Shown piece after piece: positions 41,074 through 64,000 of a stretch of DNA of 64,000 nt. The notes under the pieces were generated by a model. That model saw only the letters and a list, made by a program, of their open reading frames with translations, was not told the origin of the DNA and made no database searches. The position numbers and the translations under genes are program-made. Each line of letters begins with the position of its first letter. Position 1 is the first letter of the stretch. Origin of the DNA: Picochlorum sp. SENEW3 (lineage: Eukaryota); the NCBI GenBank assembly GCA_034226945.1, contig CP120455.1, forward strand, positions 806,001 to 870,000, written 5' to 3'.

Positions 41074-44000
41074 ATGGGAGAGGTTCGCGTCGCCGAGCTC
41101 GAGCGACAGCTCGCGAACTGCAAAGCTCAGGTACGCTGATTTCTTGGTTCTCGGATCTTTCCATGGGATCTGTCATTTTGTGATCAAATATTGATACTGT
41201 GTATGTCTGTATTGTAGCTTGAAGCTTCCACCATATTCGCGGAGCAGACGAGTCAGGTACGGCTGTTTCTGATGTTCCTTGTCTTGCTGCTTGTTGTCGC
41301 CTCTGTAGGTCGTGGGCCTTACGAATCGTCTTTGTTTGCGTAGTCTATGGAAAAACGATACCAGAGATTGTTGGAAAAACATGGTCAAACAGCCGCCGAG
41401 AAGGATTCATTGCTGAAGGAGAATGATGACTTGCAGAAGAGTGTCACCGAAGCCAAACAGGAATCTCACAAATTACAGTCTTCGTTGATGAAGGCTGAAA
41501 GTGAGAAGGAGCAGCATAAGTTAGAAATTGATAGCCTTGAACGTGACAAAGTTTCGCTGCAAAATGCATACGAACAGTCCAAGAAAGATATTGAGGAACT
41601 TCAGAGCAAGATCAGAGCAGTGTCGACAAAAGTACTGAATTTAACAAAGGAGAATGGGGAACTGGATGCGCGATTACAGAGTACGCTAGTAGAGAAAAGC
41701 AGGACGTCTCTGAATTATTCTAAGATCGAGCAAGAGAAGAAAATTTTGGAGAAGTCGAATGCATGGTTGAGCGAGGAATTGGAGAGGAAAGCTCAGACGA
41801 GTAATGAAGAGCGACAAAAAGCTACACAGAAGATTGTCGAGCTTCAAAATCAGTGCTATGAATCGCAGAGTAAGATTGAACAGCTTGAAAGCGATAAAGC
41901 CAGACTTGAAGCGGATCTTCAAGATCACGAGGAGAGCTTGAAGACAATGTCAAAGCAACTTAGAGAGGCAAAAGAGGCACTTGCAGAAAAAGAAGAAAGT
42001 TTCCAACAGGAATTAGCATTGGCTCAAAGAATGGCCCAGCTTTATAAGGAGAGCTCGGAGGAGCACACGAAGCGATCCATGGAGCTTGAAGGAATTGTGA
42101 ATGAGCTTAAGGTGCATATGGAGGAATCAGCAGAGGCTCATCGGGAGGCTATTGCAAAACTAGAGGAAGAATGCAGGGCAGCCAACCAAAGAGCGGAAGA
42201 AGAAAAAGACATTCGCGAGAAAGTTGTTGCTGCAGCAGCTACTGCCTCGTTTAGCATCTCAACTCCTGCAGGGACTGACAATGGTGCAGCACAGGCTGCT
42301 GACCAACCCCAGAGCTCCTCAGCAGAAATTTATGCTAGATTTATTGAAGCCGAGGAAAAGCTTCGCGCAGAAAAGCTAAAAAATAGAGAAAAGGAGATTC
42401 ATTTTGAGGATCTGTTAATCGAGGTGGAAAAGAGAGCTTCCCTGCTGAAAGAGCAACAACTCGAATTTGACTCAATGAAAGCATCTCATGTAAAGCTTCT
42501 GGGAGATATCGAGAGTTTATCTGCAGAGAAAAGAAGGATTCAAAGCTCATTAAAGGAGACTCAAGGTAAGTGCAAGACTCTAGAGCATGAGAACTTGTCA
42601 TTGGAGCAGCAAGTAAAAGATCTTGGCCAGCAAGTGTCAAGGTTGCTGCATGAAGGGCAAACAAATAAAGTTTCTGGCGAGAGAACGCCAGGAAATTTCA
42701 CTGGAGGCAACGCAAGTGATGTTACCACGCAATTCTTGGTTGAGTTTAGCTCTGTTGAAGAATTGCAGCAACAGAACCAGAAGTTGTTGAAAGTTAACCG
42801 AGAACTTGCTGTGGCAGCAGAGGCTACCAAGGAAACAGCTCAAAAAGAAATGCAAGAAGAATACGAAGGCAAGATCGAAAAGCTGCGAAATGATCTGGAG
42901 GATCTCAAAAGAAATCGTCACCATGCAGAGGAAATTTTTGGGCAAGTGGTGAGACAAAGAGACACTTTAAGGAAACTTCTTCAGAATGCTGGTGGGGATC
43001 TTAGTATTGGGCGTGAGATTTATGCACGTTCAGGTGGGAATGGCGCTGGAGTTCTGCCTCAGGCAAGTAATACTGAAAATGTTTTCACTTCAGAAGCAGA
43101 TAGTCTCACCTATAAGGAGATGTATGAGGATATGGAAAAAAAACTGGAAGATTTTAAGAAGAGATCTAACAAAGACTATGCTGCTCTGGAGAAGGAACTT
43201 GCGAGTTCACAAGGTGATCTGATCTCTCTAAAGAAAGAGGTTACCCAAGCTCAAGCACAGTGCCAGTACGAAAGCGAGAGATCTACAAGGCTTTCAAAAT
43301 CCATTGAATCCCAGCAAAAGCATGTGGAGAGTCTGTTGGCAAGTAACGCAAAGTATCAAGCCTTAATCAATGAAACAGAGAGGCGATTATCTTCAGCACA
43401 GCACAATTTGCAAGCCATTGAAGATGATAAGAGGAGTCTAAGCAACAAAGTGGCTAGCTTGGAGGCAGAAAAGAAGGTTCTGATTGATGCCGAGCAACGA
43501 CTCACAGCTGAAGCATCTGCTTTATCCCAGGAAAAGTTCAAGATTGCTGCGGAATTAGATGTGCTAAGAAAACAAAATAACGAACTTGAATCAAATGCTT
43601 TGAAAGATATTTCAAAGAATCAAACTTTGGCAACAAAATATATGAATGAACTCTCTGATGCCCAGAGGGAGCTATCAGTTGCCAAAAGTAGAGCAGAATA
43701 CGCCCACAATGAGGTTGCTCACTTGAAACAAGAGTTGGCAAAAACTTCTGCAAAACTTGAGGAAAAACTTGAGAAGGCTCAAACAGAGTTGTCAAGGATG
43801 CAACAGAGAGCATCAGCTGCTGAGGCAAAGGCAGATTTATTGCAAGAGGCTGTTCGCAAATCAGAAGAGAAAGTTGCGCGACTCGAGATAGAGAAAAATG
43901 CCAGGCTGCCAGCATCTCAAAGTGAGCAAGTGGAGAAGGAGACTGCAAGTGAGCCACAAGATGCGGATCTCCAGGTCAAGGAGCTGCAGTCTGAGATCAA

Positions 44001-46617
44001 AATTCTCAGAGAGGAACTTGTGGCGGCCCAAGAAGCCCTTGCAGCATCCACTGGTCATGCAAAGCAATTTGAGACAATTGCTCATACTGCCGAGGAGGCT
44101 CTGAAATCTAGTCAGACAGAGTATGAAAAATTCAGAAGAGAAGCAGCAAATCGCTTGTCATCCATTGAAGCTGAGGTCAAGAGACTTAGAATGGAAATCA
44201 CAAAGAAAGACATTGCCATTAAGGAGCTCAAGCAAGAAGAAACAAAGGCTCACCAGGAGTGTGACAAATTAAGGCACGAGATCGAAATTGAGAAGAACAA
44301 ATCAAAGAGGGAGGTGGAACTGAGCGCCGTTTCTCTTAACAGCGAGAAAGAGAAAGTTTTGCAACTTACAAAGGAGGTTGATGCTGTGCGCAAAGAAATA
44401 AATGAGGTAAAGAAAGCATATGACGATGAGGTAGTTGCTCATGGTGACGCAATCAGGAGGCTTACTGCCTCAGAATCTACCGTTCACGCAACTCAAAACC
44501 GGCTCAATGCAGTATCCGACGATTTGGAGAAAGAAAGGGCCTCCAGAAAGCTGGCCGAGACAGAGATGAAAGCAACAATTGTTGAACAGACCCAGCAGGT
44601 ACAGCAATTAACAAAACAGGTTGAGCAACTTTCCAAGCACAGGGATACCTTGCAGCAAGAGTTGGAATCCATTGCGGAATCAAAAGATCCAAGTGTCACA
44701 AATCTCTCAAAAAGCATGAAGCTTTTGAGGCAAGAAAGGGAAGCAGCAGAGCTGAATCTGTCACTCAGTGAGCGTGAATTGTCCAGGCTTCGACAAGAAA
44801 ATGCTGTTGCCAAAAGAGCGGCAGAAGAAGCTCGAGCACAGCTTTCTGCAGAAATCGAAAGACAAGCAAAGAAGAAGACAGAAGAACAACAGAATCAGAT
44901 CGGCTTAGCGGAGCAAATCAGCCTTACCAGGGAAAGTAATATGGCTCTCAGGGCGGACAACACGGACAAGCAAGCACAAATCGATTCCCTGCAAGCAAAA
45001 TTGAAGAATACAGAGGCGTCTATAGAACCTCTTAAATTAGAAATCAAAAGAAAAGAGGCTGAAATGAGCAATCTGGAGGAGAAATTACGTGTCCAGACAG
45101 AGTCTGCCAAACGCTGGGAGGCACGGTCAAAGTCCCTTGCTGAGAAATCTAGGGACGCTGAAAATGCCGACTATGAGCAAACAAAGGCAGAACTATCTGC
45201 CAAAGAAAAAGAGATGAACGCCGTTAAATCAGAGTTAGCGAGTCTAACAAAAGAAAAGGAGAAACTGGAAGTTCGTTTGAAGAATTCTGAGACAATTGCA
45301 CTGAAGGCAAATGCAAAAGCCACTGGCTTGACAAAGCAGATGGACGAGATGCGGAAAAGGGCAGAAGTGAACAGCAAATCGACTTCAGAATTATCGAAAA
45401 AGCAGCAAGAGGAGAAAGATGGAAAGATAGCAGAACTGACAAACCAGAAGAAAGCACTGGAAGAGAAGGTCAAAGAACTCTCCAAGAAGGAAGAAGTGCT
45501 CAAAGCTAATGCAAGAAAGCTTGTAAGTAATTGTGAAGCAGCAAATCAAGCTAAGAAGAAGTGTGACTCGCAGGTGAAACTGCTAAGAGGAAAAATCCAG
45601 TCGCTTGAATCTGAGATCAAATCTTTGAAAAGCAAGGAAGGTTCTGGGGCACAGCTAGTTTCGAATGTGGCTCTCTCTGATACCCAGCCTGCGCTCGAAG
45701 CGTTAGGGAAACGGAAAGCAGATAGTGACATGGATGCACCTGAGAAAGCAAACAAAAAGCTTCGTCCTGTTGCCCCTTCTTTCACTCCATCAAAATTGAC
45801 CTCGGCAACCGGTCAGAATGAAAAGGTTGAGGATGTTCAAGCCGGTGGCGAAGGTGAGAAGGAAATGGTCGATACGCAAGAGGTTGGTGCAGCTATGGAA
45901 GCTTCTGAGGCAAAGGTATTGCCTGAAAAGGAAAATAAGGCAACTGTCACTGAGAAAATTGATGTTCCAGAGGATATGGAAGAAGAACCTGAACATGTTG
46001 TTCTCACTGAGGCAGATACTATTCCTGAGAACGAAAAAGATGCTCTGAAGCAAACTGGTGCTTTGGTTCACTCAGAATCTATACCAGGAGAGGGTGCGAC
46101 ACAGGAGCAGACCACAATTGGAACTGCGCATATGGAGACAGCACCAACTGCTTCAGGAGCGGATGCACCAATGGTGACAGAAGACAAAGCAAAAGACGAA
46201 AGACCTACTGAAGCGCCCTTAGAAGCGCACCTTCCAGTTCTAGGCGAGGAACAACAGCAGGATGAGAAAGTTCTCGAGGAACCTGAGGCAACAGTGATTC
46301 CCCAGGAAGAGAATGCAGGAGAGACAGATGTTCATGCTGGGGAGGATAAAAGTTTGATCAATGAAGAAGTCAATGCAGAGGTTGAAAAGAAGCCTGCAGA
46401 AAAAGAGGAGAAGCCTGCAGAAAAAGAGGAGAAGCCTGCAGAAGAAGAGGAGAAGCCTGCAGAAGAAGAGGAGAAGCCTGCAGAAGAAGAAGAGAAGCCT
46501 GCAGAAGAAGAAAAAAAGCCTGCAGAGGAAGACGATCAGAAGCCCGAGTCACCAAAGAAACCAAAGCAGGCAAAAAAGCGTACAAAAATATTATGGAAAG
46601 ATACATCCAAACAATAA
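41074..46617 (+). CDS. NUA: Nuclear pore basket protein TPR/Mlp1/NUA
   Basis: >1750-aa coiled coil; SNAWLSEELERK, LVEFSSVEELQQQNQKLL, VVRQRDTLRKLL, YDDEVVAHG are TPR/Mlp hallmarks; two small 5' exons. Confidence 0.88.
46390..46536 (+). repeat. Coding minisatellite, about 7 x 21 bp (aagcctgcagaagaagaggag; KPAE[EK]EE)
   Basis: Directly visible tandem array in the TPR acidic tail. Confidence 0.95.
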
Positions 46618-55449: not shown

Positions 55450-56637
55450 ATGCTAAGTGCGCACCAGGGCGGGAATGTTGTCCACTCTGCTGAACCTTGT
55501 CAATCGAACTTTGTAAAAAGAGGTCAGACACGCTCGGTTAAAAGGATGAATAAAGGCATTGTGAGGGCTAAATCTAGGTACGGTTCTGCCCCAGTGTCCT
55601 GCCGTGCTTGGTGTGTTTGATACAAAGGTTAGATGGCTCACTGAGAAAGCCAGTCAGTGATATCTATCATACATTGCAGTGATATTGATGAGGAGATTCA
55701 TCGCGTTATAGAGAGCGATCTTGGTTTTGGTTCTGTTGAGAAGATGACATTCTTTGGGGGAAGTAGTTGGAGTTCTTGTTACTTGTGTGAAACTTCTCAA
55801 GGGAAAAAGGTCTTTGCAAAGACTGCTCGTGGAAGAAAATCTGAGGACATGTTTCTTGGTGAATACCTGGGCCTTAAGGCGATGTTCGGTGAGGATAGTT
55901 ATATGTTCCGTAGTGTATGATGGTATGGATGACGATAGGATATGGTTCGATACGTATGTGCAGATACAGGGGCACTTCGAATTCCCGAGGTGTATCAGTA
56001 TGGAAATGCCGGATCCGGGTCATTCATCTTGATGGAATACCTCAAACTGAATGGTGGATCATCACAAGCTCTTTTAGGAGAATGTCTAGCGAGAATGCAT
56101 CTATCAACACCATCGCATCCTAAAGCACAGGAAGGATTCTTTGGTTTTGATGTTGACAACACCATTGGTGGGACCCCACAGCCAAATCCATGGACTGATA
56201 CGTGGGTGGCTTTCTTCAAAGTCCACAGACTGCAGCATCAACTCAGGCTCGCAGGCGACAAAAATCTTTCAGTCCTAGGGGAAAAGCTGTGCAATAACCT
56301 CGAGCTGTTCTTCCCTGCAGATATGGAGATCAAACCATGCACTTTGCACGGTGACTTGTGGAGTGGTAATATAGCAAGCGTGGAAGGAAAGCCATGTCTC
56401 ATCGATCCAGCAGCGTATTACGGTCATTCTGAAGCAGAATTCGGTATGAGCTGGTGTGCTGGATTTGGAAAAGAATTTTACGATGCATACCATGCATTGA
56501 TCCCTAGGGCTCCTGGGTTCTCAGACCGCCATGATCTGTACACCCTCTACCATATGCTGAACCATTACAATTTATTCGGCGGAGGCTACTATGGTCAATG
56601 CGAGAACCTGTTGAAGCGACTGGTGTCAAAGATATAG
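55450..56637 (+). CDS. Protein-ribulosamine/fructosamine 3-kinase-like protein, plastid-targeted
   Basis: FGFDVDNTIGGTPQPNPW, LHGDLWSGN, DPAAYYGHSEAEFGMSW, LYHMLNHYNLFG. Confidence 0.92.
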
Positions 56638-57037
56638 AAGAAATATCGACCCTAATGTTGGCTGCCACTAGCAGATGAACCATGTTTATCGAGTCTAGTG
56701 TATCGGAAAAGGAGGCCACTTACATATGTTAGGGTCATGCACAATATTGTGATCGTGGTTATATATATATACAACATATGTATGTGATATATTAAATACA
56801 TGGTCATAGTAGATACAACATCACACCATCAACGGTGATGTGATGTAACGTAACGTAATTGCATTGGCCAATGTCCCATGGGACACGTGCACCTGCAGGT
56901 GATGTCTATCGTGACATGATCTGCAGATTCCGATGACGCGAGATGCGTGCTCAATGCTGACAACGCCCCACCTTGCAGATGATTCTTTATGCATTATTCA
57001 TTGTATGTTCAGTATGCATATTGTCAGAACGTAGACA

Positions 57038-57514
57038 ATGGACGCAAGACAAGGTCGAGGAAACGGGTATGCCCCGGAGTCTTGGAAAACCCTCTGTGAG
57101 CTCGAAAGGACCCTCAGCGTAAAGCTTGTTTCTGCTGAGGATCAGAAAGGTATGCATATGGTTTGTCATGGTTGTTTTTAAAGAAGCATGGGCAAAGTGA
57201 GGCTTCAGCGACCCGTGATTCTGCCCTGCGGAGGGTAAAATACGTTCAGTTTCTAGATATCTGATTGTTCATATGGATTCCTATTTTTACATTATTAATA
57301 TATATATATATATATATAGGGACGCTTTTGTCTTCTGGAGAGAACGCATCTACTCTTGGCGCCGACGAAGCACGTGGAGGTACCGGGGTAGACTCGCGCT
57401 TCGATGTCTTTCTGGATGCCGCCCAGGAATTGGACAGAAGGGGAAAGTCTACTGCTGGAGAAGGTGGGAACTTGATCTCCACTCAGGAGGATGGGATGAC
57501 TGAGAAGGAGCGAA
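57038..57514 (+). pseudogene. 5' part of a bZIP transcription factor gene, interrupted by the CACTA element (exons 57038-57149 and 57320-57514)
   Basis: MDARQGRG..EDQKG|TLLSSG..GMTEKER; the reading frame continues exactly on the far side of the element once one TSD copy is removed. Confidence 0.75.
57298..57318 (+). repeat. (AT)n microsatellite immediately before an intron 3' AG
   Basis: About 10 AT units directly followed by the acceptor of the bZIP intron. Confidence 0.9.
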
Positions 57515-57530
57515 CACTAGCGTCAGGCTG

Positions 57531-57634
57531 GATCCTTCACCGGTCCTTCACTGGTCCATTCGGGGTCGCCCGCCAAACGGGGCGAAGGACCGGTGACGTT
57601 ACATTTCGTCACCCATGGACCAGTGAAGGATCGG
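57531..57634. repeat. Left subterminal inverted/direct repeat array (TCCTTCAC[CT]GG motif)
   Basis: ccggtccttcactggtccat (57540-57559) is the reverse complement of atggaccagtgaaggatcgg (57615-57634) with 1 mismatch; tcaccggtccttc and gaaggaccggtga form a second, perfect pair. Confidence 0.9.
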
Positions 57635-58076
57635 TTCCTCCTCGCTCTCACTACCGCCCCTATTAAAATTATTTCTGGTATTCATTTATAATATTACACT
57701 CAATAGTATATATTAATGTCACAGACACAAATATGAGCAGCATTTGCCAGGGCTACTTCACAGATACCTTGTATCACCTCCAGTTGTCCATACTCCCAGT
57801 TCTGAAATTTCCAACCTGCAGGCTATCAGCTGCAAAGAATCCTATTATTTCTGCAAGCCCGTTACCATCCGACACCTTTAACTTATTTACAGCCACTCCA
57901 ATTTCCCTAAAGACTCAGCCTGCACTTAGTACACCTTTTTCCCAGCCCTAGCAGCCTCCACTTCACTACAGTACTTGAGCTTTGGTGGGTTTCCCCACCG
58001 AACTCTCGTTACATGTGATAAATAGAATGTTATATGGTTTTATACTACATTTCAGCTCAAAAGAACGACAGAAGAA

Positions 58077-59469
58077 TCACACTAGCGTGATATCGGTGTT
58101 CACTGGGGTGTTCTCACTCCTTTCTTTTCTTCTACATCTCTCAGCTCTATCTTTTGCGCTAGAAATGTATCTTCGACCATCTTGTTGCCATGCCTCTACA
58201 TTTGAACATCCTGCCGGTCTTCGCTTCCTGTTTCTTGGCTGCTTGAGCTTCTTGATTTCATCTTTTAGAGATCGTATTTCCTCATTCTTCTTTTTGATCA
58301 CTTGTTGTAAACCAGAATCATCCTTCTCCTTGGCAGCCATTTCTCTAAGCGATTTCACGTCGTCTTGTAAAGAAGTTATTTTCCTAAGCAAACTTGCTTG
58401 TTTAGGGACATCGAAAGCTGATGCATTTGCATGCAGTTGGGAGTCAAGTATTGCATTTGCATGGTCATCATCCACTTGACACATCCTACTAGGCTGTTCT
58501 CGAAGGTCTTCATCATCGCTGCTTTCTATGCCTGGCGTGTAATCATTCCTATTGGAAACGGTTCCTCTTGCTGCAGAAGCCTGGATGATGTTTGATGTCA
58601 ACCCCATGCTGCATACATTGGAAGCATCAGGTGATGGTCTCGACAACCATTGCATTACTTCCTTCCAGTCGTCTCCTGGTGGGACTAACCCTGCATAGGC
58701 TCCGTTGTTGTCCCTTATATACCGCCCAAAGTTGTCCCAGTAGACATCAGCAGATCCTCTTAGTGCAGCTACAACTTGGCTTCGCAACTTGCCCAACCGA
58801 AGGTTGGATGTTGTGTTGTTCGTATAGGTCGTCACGTACTTGAAGAATTTGGTCAAGTCGGTAATTTTTCTCCTTCTGCCTTCCTTCTGAATTTCATAAA
58901 GGACTCGCACCCGGCCAGGTTCCCAAAAGTATTTATCCACAATACCCTTTCGTCCCCTTGGCCTCTCTAGAGCAAAGGCGCCGTAAACTTCCCCATATTC
59001 TTCCTGATCCTTGTGAATTCTTGGCCAATACTGGTACAACATGCCCAATATCCATTTCTTGAAGTCGGCGTCTTGGGGGCTATCACTCTGACGAGTTGAT
59101 ATGGCAGTTGAGCCATGAAACCCGCTGGTGCCCTGGGTCTCTAGGCAATCTTCTGCAGTAAATATAATAGTAATATGAGAAATATCATCGCTTTCTGATC
59201 TCTTCTGCAGTCTGCAAGATAGACAATTCGATAGGGTCCGAAGGCCAACCGTTTTCTCTTCGCTGCACTTTTCCACATTCAGGTACAAGCGAATTTTTTT
59301 TCCCTTTCTCACACTCTAATTTTTTAATTGTTTCCTCCAACTCTTTCAGGATCATATCGGACGTCCAACCCTCGTAAACTGTGCACAACTCGTGCACGTC
59401 GGTGCCATCTGGACTCCGCAAACGAACAGCCGTCTCCAATCCAGGACTGAGGAAAACCTCTTCGCTCAT
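58077..59469 (-). CDS. Transposon-borne accessory protein of unknown family (about 440 aa; exons 59469-59269 and 59204-58077)
   Basis: A 64-nt gtgcag..ctgcag intron joins ORFs 59185-59469 and 58077-59312 in frame; coiled coil and basic NLS-like KQPRNRKRR near the C-terminus; lies inside the TIRs. Confidence 0.7.
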
Positions 59470-59741
59470 ATTTACTAATTTGATTTAATAAATAAATATC
59501 TGGTAATTTGTTCTGGTATCAGTCATGCGGGATGTCGATGGATGTATTGTTGACAATGATTGGTAGTTATTCGTCAGTTGCAGTTACATGCACCTTATCA
59601 TCCCCATGTTGAAGACGTCTCGTTGGAAGATTGGCATAACCATATCTATATGATATATTTATGTACAAAGATTTGATCTTTCATGAAAAATCTTGTCTGA
59701 TCGTATCTGGATAACCTATTTGTTCTTGAAAGTTGGTTGCC

Positions 59742-62725
59742 ATGACTCAGGACCTTTGCCACAACTGTCGCAGGACGATGCCATCCTCTCGCAGTGGGAA
59801 AGCACATCACATTCAAGGTAAATGCAAGTCGATTTTCACAGGGGGAGCTCACTGTAGGTGATGCACCTCCCATGATAGCCACGGAGCAGTTGAGTCCAGA
59901 TACAGCAGAAGTGCCTACACCCGTGCAGAATTCAGGTGAAGATGCTGCAGAGGATGGCACTCCTTTTGAATATTACAATACTTACACCTCTATTCCCAAG
60001 AAAAACACAGTCGAGTATTACGTCAGCATGATGAACGAGCCTGTTTTCACTGGTGCAAACCAAACGTTGAAGGAATACTTGCAGTCATCATTTGCACTCT
60101 ATGTCTCAAGTGGTATGGGGAAAGCAACATTCGAAGAGCTATTACAACGAGATCGAGTCTTATTGGAGAATTTTGATCCCATCATCCCCAAATCCCTGTA
60201 TCTCGTGAGAGAATCCCTTGGCATTCCCAAGGCTGACCAGGTTGAGCATCACATTTGTACTTGCCTGCAGTACATATTCGACCGTCTTCCCAAGGAGCAA
60301 TGGATCTCACACAAGGATGATAAGTGTAAAGGTTGTGAGAAGCCTCGATTCAACGTAGTGAGAAATTTTGATGGTTCTCTCAGGGTCACGCCCAGGAAGG
60401 TACTCATCTCTTGTCAAATAGTATTTACTATCCATGAGACCTATCGATTCTGATCTTATTTGCCTGCTCTGCAGAAGTTTTATGCATTCAATCTTGAAAG
60501 TCAAATCAAGCGTCTCTTCCGTATACCTGACTTTGCGCAGAAAAGAGGGTCGCAAAGGGAGCAGAACTTAGTCTACCAGTCCGAGCACTACGAATGGTTA
60601 GTAGGAGCCACCCGTGGGGGGGTGGCACAGGTCAGCAATAGTGTGTATAGTGTTGGGTTTGATTGGTGTCAGGCTACTAAATCAAAAGAGCATTCTATGG
60701 GAGTTGTAAGCATGCGATGCGAGGACTTGCCAGCAGATCTAGCCCACAAGGACAGCATGACAGTGCCATTGCTCTACTTACCGGGCCCCAAAGAGCCAAC
60801 CTGTCTGAATGCGTTGTTCAATTTGATCGCTGCACAATTTACTAAGGCAGCAGAGTCTGGTATTCAAGTGAGCTATATTAACAGCGAAGGCAAGCAAGTG
60901 GAAATACTCCACAAACCGTATTGGGTATTTATCCACTGTGATTCCCCTGCACGAAGCAAATTAGGTTGCTTCAATGGAGCTAATGCTACCTTTTGCTGCC
61001 CATACTGCCGTCATCCTTCAGTTCGAGTTGAAAAAGCATTGAAGCCCTTGGGCTACCTCGAGCCTGTCTCTTACTTGCATTATATATGTGTGACACAAAA
61101 AGAGGAAGAGCAACGACTTCTGACCTACCAAATGGGTGTCAGAAGACAGCGATTGTCCCTAGAAAACATGGAACACCGGGAGAAGCTGTTTATGTACTTG
61201 ATCAAGAAAGGGAGATATCAGCACGAGGAGATCAGGAAAGAGTTGGGCATCAATGGGAAATGTGACCTGTTTGGGAAAGTGACCACACTACACCGTGTGC
61301 ATGCCTTTCTCCTTCCCTTTTACCATCTCATTTTTCTTGGAGTACTCAAAACGTTTTTCACTCTTCTTGTGAAGAAGGACCCGAAAAAGAAGGCTAGGAA
61401 GAAGAGAAATAGAACAAAGGACAGGGATGAAGATGGATCAGATACAAATGAAGTTACGATCTTCCGCCTGAGCAAGCTCAAGGAATTGAATAATTGTATC
61501 ATCTCAACATCTGACCTGGGAAGGCCACCGAGATGTTTATCAAATATTGCGGCATTCCTTGTCGAAGACGCGAAGAACCTTTGGGAGTTTCAAGGCACTC
61601 TCCTTATGCACCCAGCAGTAACAAGTAAAGTCCTGGGTCTCGAAGACGGAGTGCTTCCACCACTAGCAAAAGAGGCATGGGGATATTTAAGAAGAGGAAT
61701 TGACTTTTTTATGGATCAGGACACAGTGTCTCTTGACAAGCATGGCCGCACAACACTGGCTGCAAAGGAAGCACAAGAGAGCCTGCTGGAGTTTGCCAAG
61801 ATATGCGAAAAGGTATGTGGAGATGCATGTGCCTCATTACGCATTGCGCCTCCTTTCAAAATTTAAACATCGTAATTTGCAGAATTTTATGCCAGTGTGC
61901 ACGCAAAACCTGCACATCCTTATCTGCAGACTATTAGATCAGGAGAAGGCAACAGGAAAAGCCAAGTTCATGAATGAGTTGCACATTGAGAGATCGCTTC
62001 AATTCTTTAAGAAGAATGCCACAGGAAAAGCAGAACCAGAAAAGGTTGCATTACAGAAACTGTTGGACCACTACTACCTGGAGGAGTGCTGTGGCAAGTC
62101 ATCTGCTTCCAGCATCACCCAGGTATCTCAGAGCAAGAGCAGCCCTTTCATTGCATCGGATGAGGATTTCTTTACAGGCCCAACAAAGGCCACGGAGAAA
62201 CAGATGGAACGCATTCAGGCGTTCTGTCGACGTTCCAACATCAGGGCACATACATCAGATTGCAAAGTTTACAAAGTTGCTGAACTACACCGAGATGGCA
62301 AGATTGAGAGAGTAAATTCATCTTTGTACAACAGGGAGCGGACACGACAGTCAAATACTGTGCTTGTTGACATGAATTCATCGGGCTCATCGCACCACCT
62401 TGGAGTTGGCATTGTGAAATTTTTCTTTTCTGTAGAAGTCGATGGGACAGAGACAATGGCAGCAGCCATCCAAATATATCGTGATGACCAGGTTGAATTT
62501 CATCATGATCACGACTTTGGCACAGTAATTGAAATCAAAATCAATCGGGACCACAAGCTGATACGTATTCGATGCCTTCCCTTGGAGAAGATACTGACAA
62601 AGGTCGTTCGTTTAAACTGCAGTGACCTGGACAAGAACGGGAATCCCACCGAGGAAACACAAGTCAAATATAGCGACTTTGTTGTACCAAAATCTCAAAA
62701 GTGGCTCAGACATATCGATTCGTAG
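59742..62725 (+). CDS. EnSpm/CACTA DDE transposase (Transposase_21/Tnp2-like); introns 60400-60474 and 61813-61882; first exon tentative
   Basis: HHICTC..CKGCEKPRF; VGFDWCQ (D1); SMGVV.MRCEDLP; LPGPKEP; HCDSPARSKLG..G.NAT.CCPYC (D2); YHLIFLGVLK; TQNLH..G..MNELHIER (E). Confidence 0.88.
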
Positions 62726-63078
62726 ACGTGAGATGCTCAACTTCGGTCAAGATGTGACATCAATGCCTTGGAAATGCTCCTCACACCAAGAGCCATGTTT
62801 GGGCCATATATCTTGTCATATGATATAATTATCATTTAATATATGTTATATGACGCTTGGTGCTTCCCTGACGCAGCAAACTGGTCAACTCGGAGAAGGC
62901 GAATTGCGAGCAGAGTGGACCGACCCGTTTCTTGACAAAACTCATATTTCAGGCCAAACTGGCCTCGGTTATACATTATTATAGTAAAATTGTAAATATT
63001 TATGGCACCAAGGGGTCGTTTTGGTCCACTTGAAATTTCACGAAGTATCAATGAAGGAACCTCGTGACGCTAGTGGAA

Positions 63079-64000
63079 GGCGGTTGGAGGCTACCAGAGC
63101 CAAAAACAGAAGGGTGAGTCTCCATCTTTTGGCGAATTGTTTTCATATGATGGCTCTAATTGGGTTGTTCTCATGCGATTTATAATCATGTATGTAGGCC
63201 CAGAAGAGATTTCGGGAGAAAACGAAGACGAACATGCTGAAAATGGAAGCAGATGTCAACAAGGGTCTGAAAGAGATTGAGTTTCTCCGACACCAGAATC
63301 GCAAATTGTTCCAGGATAGGCTGATTTTGACGTTCTCTACTATGTTGAGAAAAGAACTCGTGATAACATATACGGATAAAAACAATATCTGGAAATTTCG
63401 GCTGCCAGAGGGGCTGGCAGTTATGTCTGGAATGGAGAGTGATTCGTCATCAGTATGTGTTTCCACAACATTGGATGAGATGAGGAAAGCAAAAGTTTCC
63501 TTGCAAGAATCCATCGAAGCCGGCGGTGATTCATACAAGGATTCTTTGTTGGCGATTCTCGGGAAATTTTGGAGCGTGGCAGAACTCGATGCCATGAAAT
63601 TTGGTGAGCTTTTGCAGTTGGGCACAGCATGCAACTTCACCACCAAGGCAGCTTGGACTGCAATCATGTCAAGGGTTTCAAGCATCGACAGGGAGTTCAT
63701 GTTTAAGATGTACAACAATTTTAAGAAAGGGCAGGAGAAGTTATCAGAGTACTTGTCTTCAACATTGTCCCATTTGGAGGATTCCTCACCAGAGTCAGTT
63801 GAAAGTTCCGTGATGTCTGTACCGAAGATCAAGACCTCTCTTGAACTTTCCCGGTTAAATCAGGTGTCTCTGGAATTCTTTGCTCTGTACTGTGAGGCAT
63901 ATGTCCATCTGCAGCAAAGGAGCAGCATGAAGGATTTAGCCCACATCTGGGCAGAGTCCCCAACAGTGATCCCTGATGTGCTGAGTCTCCTCATTGCTCT
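63079..64000 (+). pseudogene. 3' part of the interrupted bZIP gene (exon 63079-63113, intron 63114-63197, exon 63198 to beyond 64000)
   Basis: RRLEATRAKNRR|AQKRFREKTKTNMLKMEADVNKGLKEIEFLRHQNRKLFQDRLIL gives an N-x7-R-x9-zipper pattern; frame open to the window end (hence missing from the ORF track). Confidence 0.8.

Follow-up and report, generated by a model that had tools for sequence, protein, structure and literature searches.

What has split the gene that begins at position 57038 of this stretch of DNA, and how much of its function could remain? The window, by which we mean the whole 64,000-nucleotide (nt) stretch analyzed (Picochlorum sp. SENEW3, contig CP120455.1), carries near its right-hand end a DNA transposon of 5,561 bp with CACTA-type ends, and the gene resumes in frame on the far side of it. 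We consider it likely that a recently mobile CACTA element landed in coding exon 2 of the gene encoding a probable bZIP-type nuclear regulator of ~384 amino acids, and that the interrupted copy is a loss-of-function allele. The boundaries of the element, and of the short duplication that frames it, are as follows.

57515–63075, plus strand: CACTA-type DNA transposon, 5,561 bp, one copy in the window
57515–57525, plus strand: left terminal inverted repeat, CACTAGCGTCA, matching the right end at 11 of 11 positions
63065–63075, minus strand: right terminal inverted repeat, the exact reverse complement of the left
57512–57514, no strand assigned: left copy of the target-site duplication, GAA, read directly
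63076–63078, no strand assigned: right copy of the target-site duplication, GAA, read directly

Read directly from the sequence, the element starts with CACTAGCGTCA at 57515, and the exact reverse complement of this 11-mer closes it at 63075. CACTA termini combined with a 3-bp duplication characterize the CACTA/En-Spm superfamily, and we assign the element to it as a cut-and-paste transposon. When one mismatch was allowed, the terminal 11-mer occurred four times in the window, as against 0.64 expected, a count reached by none of 100 shuffled sequences, and the exact matches were the two element ends. Nested subterminal inverted repeats are present at the left end (57531–57635), and a repeat comparison of both ends found no matching set at the right end. 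The element has a G+C content of 44.7%, similar to that of its surroundings, and when compared with the window by self-BLAST, it matched only itself.

To examine the site in other material, four sequencing runs (X1, X6, X14, and X15) were compared, as contigs, with positions 56600–64000; runs X17–X24, which had small shares, do not enter the comparison. X6 is a gut metagenome and X15 a marine metatranscriptome, and the organism of X14 is labelled differently from that of the best-matching run. X1, in which 0.99 of the sampled words were found with no mismatches, may be the window's own sample and hence not independent of it. In X14, a single contig of 4,960 nt (depth 198.6) covers 56600–57511 and then 63076–64000. 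The joint from 57511 to 63076 skips 5,564 nt, has three ambiguous letters, and is flanked by at least 255 letters on each side. The skipped sequence comprises the element and one copy of GAA, no footprint is left, and the three-letter ambiguity fits the 3-bp target-site duplication at 57512–57514. The X14 site is the ancestral, never-occupied state. Compared with the window, the 912-nt upstream flank in X14, part of which is intergenic, has 50 different letters and 39 gap positions, and the 925-nt downstream flank has 30 different letters. One X6 contig has the same empty-site joint, at a depth of 25, but its shorter side comprises only 28 letters, and it is a weak hint.

In X1, an 11,084-nt contig covers 56600–57544 and a 1,215-nt contig covers 63046–64000; both run across the junctions, stop after 30 nt of element sequence, and keep the depth of the flanks (58–59). 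That an assembler wrongly joined a repeat into the gene is scarcely credible. The element is indeed repeated in the genome, at about twice the depth of the flanks, and assemblers err at repeats, but the 3-bp duplication and the perfect inverted ends lie exactly where the frame is broken, and the short-word contigs of X1, though possibly from the same sample as the window, cross both junctions.

The X1 junctions also bear on the state of the allele, which the original prediction had described as either a natural insertional knockout or a heterozygous allele. No empty-site joint was listed among the X1 contigs, which can drop rare variants. Heterozygosity of the insertion is not supported, because an appreciable empty allele should break the X1 contigs at the junction. 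It is quite improbable that the strain is diploid and that an uninterrupted second haplotype supplies the regulator, leaving no phenotype. The Picochlorum sp. BPE23 data include two entries for this protein (385 and 384 amino acids), an observation that two haplotypes in that strain could explain; the X14 contigs are far more fragmented (58,937 records over 22.1 Mb), as expected of a heterozygous genome; and a minor empty-site allele could stay hidden when contigs drop rare variants. On the other hand, the X1 flank contigs run 30 nt into the element unbroken and at an equal depth of 58, with no empty-site joint, and the X1 contigs are long (up to 245,593 nt; 6,326 records over 13.3 Mb), as expected with little heterozygosity. 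Of the two states first proposed, the insertional knockout thus fits better and the heterozygous allele is unsupported by the X1 junction contigs.

The gene itself can be followed on both sides of the element, with the following parts.

57038–57149, plus strand: exon 1, with the ATG at 57038; 112 nt, 37 codons plus one base
57150–57319, plus strand: intron 1, GTATGC..ATATAG, 170 nt, with a TA repeat; its ends were read from the sequence, and the orthologue alignment skips it
57320–57514, plus strand: exon 2 before the insertion, ending in ...MTEKER plus the first base of the next codon
63079–63113, plus strand: exon 2 after the insertion, 35 nt, encoding the N-terminal half of the basic region (..RRLEATRAKNRR) and matched by amino acids 104–115 of the orthologue P0004
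63114–63197, plus strand: intron 2, GTGAGT..ATGTAG, 84 nt, with in-frame stops; a 28-residue gap in the tblastn alignment
63198–64000, plus strand: last exon, encoding the remaining part of the basic region together with the zipper and a helical C-terminal part of ~220 amino acids

When the element, one GAA, and the two GT..AG introns are removed, the four coding pieces, joined by script, form 381 codons without a stop. The last exon is open for 267 codons (63198–63998) up to the window edge, which cuts it three to four codons short of the expected stop. The insertion lies between the first and second bases of codon 103, inside a KERRR cluster located at the N-terminal margin of the basic region, and the invariant Asn of that region is nine codons 3' of it. 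The first splice is seen in RNA: an X15 contig leaves the genome at 57150 and resumes with the sequence starting at 57321. The contig comparison skipped 57286–57326 as a repeat, and hence intron 1 gave no listed joint. A (TA)n run occupies 57300–57319, at the 3' end of this intron and immediately 5' of the acceptor.

Uninterrupted relatives carry the argument that the two sides are parts of one gene. A word-index search identified P0004, a protein of 385 amino acids that is 96% identical to the last exon over the whole query and reads straight through the proposed join (...MTEKERRRLEATRAKNRRAQKRFREK...). When P0004 was aligned to the window with tblastn, amino acids 1–38 matched 57038–57151 (94.7% identity), amino acids 38–103 matched 57319–57513 (90.9%), and amino acids 104–382 matched 63078–63998, with the 28-residue gap falling exactly at intron 2. 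The three pieces are collinear, and the only gaps are at the element and the introns. The element-free spliced frame is 94.8–96.3% identical to all six of the full-length members of the cluster, which are 384–385 amino acids long and collinear across the insertion point. The named members are two entries from Picochlorum sp. BPE23 (385 and 384 amino acids), one from the P. oklahomense MMETSP1161 transcriptome, and a P. renovo model, every one of them annotated as 'hypothetical protein'; the others are one further MMETSP transcript and two JGI entries. The transcriptome-derived members show that splicing of the mRNA follows the proposed model. The window protein has diverged by ~4% from the named Picochlorum species.

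These comparisons bear out the gene model that had first been read from the sequence alone. The join obtained by removing 57515–63078 is confirmed by P0004 and by the 381-codon open frame, and the intron at 63114–63197 by its GTGAGT..ATGTAG ends and by the orthologue gap located exactly there. The 3' half, described as open for about 800 nt, is open from 63198 to 63998 (267 amino acids) and still open at the window end, and the break does fall just upstream of the basic motif, nine codons before the invariant Asn. It had been named beforehand as a possible objection that the 5' and 3' exons might belong to different genes in relatives; the orthologues are collinear and the X14 contig joins 57511 to 63076, so in relatives they are one gene.

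The family appears to be restricted to Picochlorum and its near relatives, because only a few clusters were found in either a representative search or a search of 90% clusters. With the last exon as the query, an exhaustive representative search returned three clusters at E ≤ 1e-3 and the 90%-cluster search returned four. General bZIP proteins were not reached by the representative search, for which the query contained only half the domain. One of its three clusters, a repetitive protein of 1,934 amino acids that matched in 18 stretches, was taken as spurious. A distant homologue, P0002 (28% identical), and relatives called as open reading frames (ORFs) start directly after intron 2. No longer relatives of the last exon were found by the word-index search, and when JGI metagenome contigs were scanned with the family alignment, none of the 590 pattern matches was confirmed.

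What kind of protein has been interrupted? It is quite probably a true, although divergent, bZIP protein. The Pfam bZIP_2 profile matched P0004 residues 110–152 over profile positions 9–51 of 54 (19.9 bits, E = 7.6e-4), whereas the isolated 77-amino-acid domain scored 22.4 bits (E = 1.3e-4), just above the curated gathering cut-off of 22.3 bits. The last exon alone scored 14 bits (profile positions 17–51), so the exon upstream of intron 2 raises the bZIP_2 score, which is what a genuine join would predict. In the basic region, the N-x7-R spacing is present, with N113 and R121 of P0004 in ..AKNRRAQKRFREK.., and the heptad positions at 9+7n residues after the Arg are occupied by M, G, L, L, and L, which are invariant or nearly so in 10 sequences. 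P0002, at 28% identity, keeps AQ.RFREK.K.NM.KM and the M/G/L/L/L positions. Basic regions of this AQ/FR kind (N-x2-AQ-x2-FR-x-[RK]) are typical of the yeast YAP/Pap1 type. In the AlphaFold model, residues 100–167 form one helix, with a predicted local distance difference test score (pLDDT) of 74–82 over residues 101–140, compared with a mean of 46.2 overall. In an Atlas feature search, which relies on language-model features, gives neither an alignment nor an E-value, and provides only a lead when a match is below 0.9, the nearest clusters were chlorophyte. One, automatically named 'putative BZIP domain-containing protein', matched at 0.90 (194 of 256 features), and a cluster in which 49% of members have bZIP_1 and 35% have bZIP_2 matched at 0.84; both placements are leads and not tests. 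A relaxed bZIP pattern had no match in the six frames of the window and none in 30 shuffled sequences.

Several results weigh against a bZIP assignment. The whole orthologue scores below the bZIP_2 cut-off (19.9 versus 22.3 bits); bZIP_1 gave no match at E ≤ 1 with either the whole orthologue or the 77-amino-acid domain; searches of PDB sequences with P0004, the domain, and the family profile (phmmer and profile searches) found no bZIP or TGA protein at E ≤ 10; and Met and Gly, not Leu, occupy the first two of the five heptad 'd' positions. The best PDB sequence matches, to HDAC6 zinc-finger fragments, SREBP, and TCERG1, had E-values of 0.15–2 and were taken as chance. Together with the uniform annotation of the named members as hypothetical proteins, these results would suit a lineage-specific coiled-coil protein in which a basic stretch imitates the motif. 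We regard this as unlikely, given that the isolated domain attains the bZIP_2 cut-off, that the N-x2-AQ-x2-FR-x-K spacing and the heptad register are kept down to 28% identity, that the model has a single long helix of fair confidence, and that the Atlas neighbours include, as leads, the bZIP-named cluster and the cluster bearing bZIP_1 and bZIP_2. The protein resembles known bZIP factors in its N-x7-R motif, in a heptad register that begins nine residues after the Arg, with Leu at three of its five positions, in an Asn at a zipper 'a' position, in its one continuous modelled helix, and in its borderline bZIP_2 match, but differs in a score at or below the cut-off, in the Met and invariant Gly at the first two 'd' positions, in the missing bZIP_1 match, and in a large C-terminal domain that belongs to no family. 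The bZIP identity first proposed from the N-x7-R motif and the M/G/L/L/L register is thus probable. The absence of any bZIP profile match had been named beforehand as the other possible objection; bZIP_2 does match, at a borderline score, and bZIP_1 gives no support. As judged from these motifs, the bZIP-like domain would bind DNA and dimerise.

The C-terminal part (P0004 residues ~165–385; window 63330–64000) is helical, ~220 amino acids long, and matches no family. The structure predictions had mean pLDDT values of 46.2 for the whole protein and 47.1 for the last exon alone, and because these means are only 46–47, the C-terminal fold cannot be judged from them. Chains of the Arabidopsis factor TGA3 ranked second, third, and sixth in the Foldseek search with the whole-protein model and first and second with the last-exon model, at non-significant levels (E = 0.44–1.4, template modelling scores of 0.2–0.4, root-mean-square deviation >10 Å); all Foldseek matches had E ≥ 0.44. 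When the same candidates were realigned with VIA-align, TGA3 was not among the best 50, and the best Z of 7.0 belonged to generic helical proteins and is common for helical models. Pfam DOG1 gave no match to P0004 at E ≤ 1, and one Atlas row, at 0.78, carries DOG1 together with bZIP. The plant TGA factors (PDB 7TAD, 7TAC, and 7TAE) consist of a bZIP domain followed by a DOG1-type, NPR1-interacting helical domain, and the order of parts here is the same, a probable bZIP domain followed by a helical domain of ~200 amino acids, but with neither a significant fold match nor a Pfam DOG1 match. A TGA-like architecture is a lead only.

With the gene and the element defined, the consequence of the insertion can be predicted. 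We propose that the CACTA element inserted into coding exon 2 of the gene for a ~384-amino-acid nuclear regulator of a Picochlorum-like trebouxiophyte, the regulator consisting of a low-complexity N-terminal part of ~100 amino acids, a probable bZIP domain, and a helical C-terminal domain of ~220 amino acids. Transcribed from its own promoter, the interrupted gene would yield a product of 152 amino acids (102 native residues and 50 residues encoded by the element) before a stop. With the insertion nine codons before the invariant Asn, the basic region, zipper, and C-terminal domain would all be missing from this truncated product, and an allele whose product lacks the DNA-binding region would be expected to be a loss-of-function allele. 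The footprint-free empty site in relatives, the undamaged frame, and what appear to be two identical copies of the element, described below, suggest that the insertion is recent.

Two ways in which the gene might still yield a DNA-binding protein involve the right end of the element, where the following feature is located.

63051–63053, plus strand: ATG within the element's right end, nine codons ahead of the retained basic-region exon and sharing its reading frame (ORF 62988–63185)

Translation from this ATG gives MKEPRDASGRRLEATRAKNRR, in which MKEPRDASG is fused to RRLEATRAKNRR. It is very doubtful that a DNA-binding protein is still made, either because the element is spliced out or because an N-terminally truncated protein is translated from the ATG at 63051. 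The position of this ATG, in frame with the RRLEATRAKNRR exon, and the undamaged downstream frame would allow it, and in some maize dSpm alleles splicing takes the element out of the transcript. Here, however, the element has neither a GT at its start nor an AG at its end at the junctions; inspection of the junctions by eye, which was confined to them, found no GT/AG pair that would remove the element in frame; and a promoter directed outward from the element is entirely conjectural. The X15 depth over 62775–63268 is zero, but this run represents relatives that probably lack the insertion. A related idea, which would make the insertion a rewiring rather than a loss, is that read-out from an apparently active, autonomous element produces a regulator that lacks its first 102 residues, retains the DNA-binding, zipper, and C-terminal domains, and is under transposon control; we give this very little credence. 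If it were true, an active CACTA element in a streamlined Picochlorum genome would be remodelling a bZIP regulator that is specific to the lineage and possibly TGA-like. Loss of function thus remains our preferred interpretation of the allele. En/Spm insertions are known in maize pigment regulators, and the present case resembles such classical transposon alleles in that the coding sequence of a probable regulator is occupied by a CACTA element, whereas the site is empty in relatives. It differs in its host, a unicellular trebouxiophyte with a streamlined genome, and in that no excision footprints were seen.

The element carries two candidate genes, as follows.

59872–62725 (stop included), plus strand: putative transposase gene, an inferred model with exons at 59872–60399, 60475–61812, and 61883–62725
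58077–59315, minus strand: second frame of the element, 412 codons from stop to stop, 321 amino acids from the first Met

Three long plus-strand frames (59746–60453, 60454–61866, and 61691–62725) are joined by two GT..AG introns (GTACTC..CTGCAG, 75 nt; GTATGT..TTGCAG, 70 nt) into 944 open codons, and the putative transposase would be 902 amino acids long from the first Met of this inferred gene model. The only in-frame stop between two of the long frames falls inside the 75-nt intron, and the 70-nt intron shifts the reading frame into the third. In the Atlas search with the central 470 amino acids, the nearest matches were Transposase_21 (tnp2) clusters (0.96, 189 of 256 features); this set made up 17 of the 30 Atlas matches of the putative transposase, and a Plavaka-bearing cluster matched at 0.94. 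Transposase_21, or tnp2, is the CACTA transposase family, with fungal relatives such as Plavaka. The likeness of the 944-codon product to tnp2/Transposase_21 lies in language-model features only, with no Pfam match. When the transposase frame was compared with phages by tblastn, no match was obtained, phages being an ill-chosen collection for such a query. The minus-strand frame is coiled-coil-like and belongs to no family. RNA-library contigs from X15 cover 57520–59047 and 61961–62739 and leave 59317–61786 and 62775–63268 uncovered; we draw no conclusion from these uncovered stretches.

Copies of the element were also found in the sequencing runs. In X1, the body of the element forms one 5,181-nt contig with no mismatches, at a depth of 123.6, approximately twice that of the flanks, and a second pair of flanks (...ACAT/CACTA... 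and ...TAGTG/CATG..., with the slash at the element end) reveals a 3-bp CAT duplication. Because of this doubled depth without mismatches and the second flank pair, X1 appears to hold two identical full-length copies. Internally deleted or truncated derivatives are represented by joints from 60004 to 62652 in X1 and from 60405 to 62652 in X6, which have the right breakpoint at 62652 in common, and a degenerate remnant of the right end (63001–63051) is common to X1 and X6. The element in X14 has diverged by ~0.7% (39 different letters over 5.6 kb, in three contigs) and has other flanks, and therefore the element is located at different places in related organisms. The element looks autonomous: its frames are intact, its ends are perfect, its copies appear identical, and its location differs between relatives. 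These features suggest that it is, or was very recently, mobile.

The remaining points on the opposing side concern the allele and the element rather than the bZIP domain. The loss of function is a prediction from sequence. X1, which supplies the unbroken junctions, may not be independent of the window, and its contigs could have dropped a rare empty-site joint. The copy number of two was derived from contig word depth, which is not a copy number. The three exon-sized transposase frames matched no Pfam family, including Transposase_21, at E ≤ 1, and the word-index search found no longer relatives of the transposase frame.

When compared with the CACTA/En-Spm superfamily in general, the element is typical in its 5'-CACTA...TAGTG-3' ends and 3-bp target duplication, in the subterminal repeats of at least its left end, in having two putative genes of which the large one would contain introns, and in the internally deleted derivatives that occur in the same genome. 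It differs in that its perfect inverted repeat is only 11 nt, in its very low copy number of about two full copies, and in its occurrence in a genus with few DNA transposons, which account for 0.35% of the P. SENEW3 nuclear genome according to a published account (PMC11092101). A literature search, judged by title and abstract, found no account of CACTA elements in Picochlorum, and a separate search on bZIP in Picochlorum, judged by title, found no paper that deals with the interrupted gene.

The disruption of the gene is real but of an ordinary kind, because CACTA elements, bZIP factors, and insertional alleles are all well known already. What is new is this particular CACTA element, the small unannotated bZIP-like family, and the natural disrupted allele beside intact relatives. 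Strains of Picochlorum are fast-growing, stress-tolerant algae with compact genomes that are being developed as production hosts. An apparently intact CACTA element bears on the stability of such strains and might be developed into an endogenous tool for insertional mutagenesis. A strain in which the regulator would naturally be missing, set beside relatives that keep it, provides a ready comparison for identifying the regulator's targets, and the interrupted family itself pairs a divergent bZIP-like domain with a C-terminal domain of no known family.

Some minor features of the window were also recorded. The upstream neighbour of the interrupted gene, at 55939–56637 on the plus strand, is a gene of the fructosamine kinase family (Pfam Fructosamin_kin, E = 1.4e-69), and its stop codon is 400 nt from the start codon of the interrupted gene. 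Further upstream, a region of strong AT skew (42001–46000) is associated with a 21-nt tandem repeat at 46388–46532 (6.9 copies, 95% matches), which was recorded as lying within it. Weak coiled-coil-like tblastn matches to the orthologue P0004, used as the query, occur at 43429–45267, which is part of the same AT-skew region.

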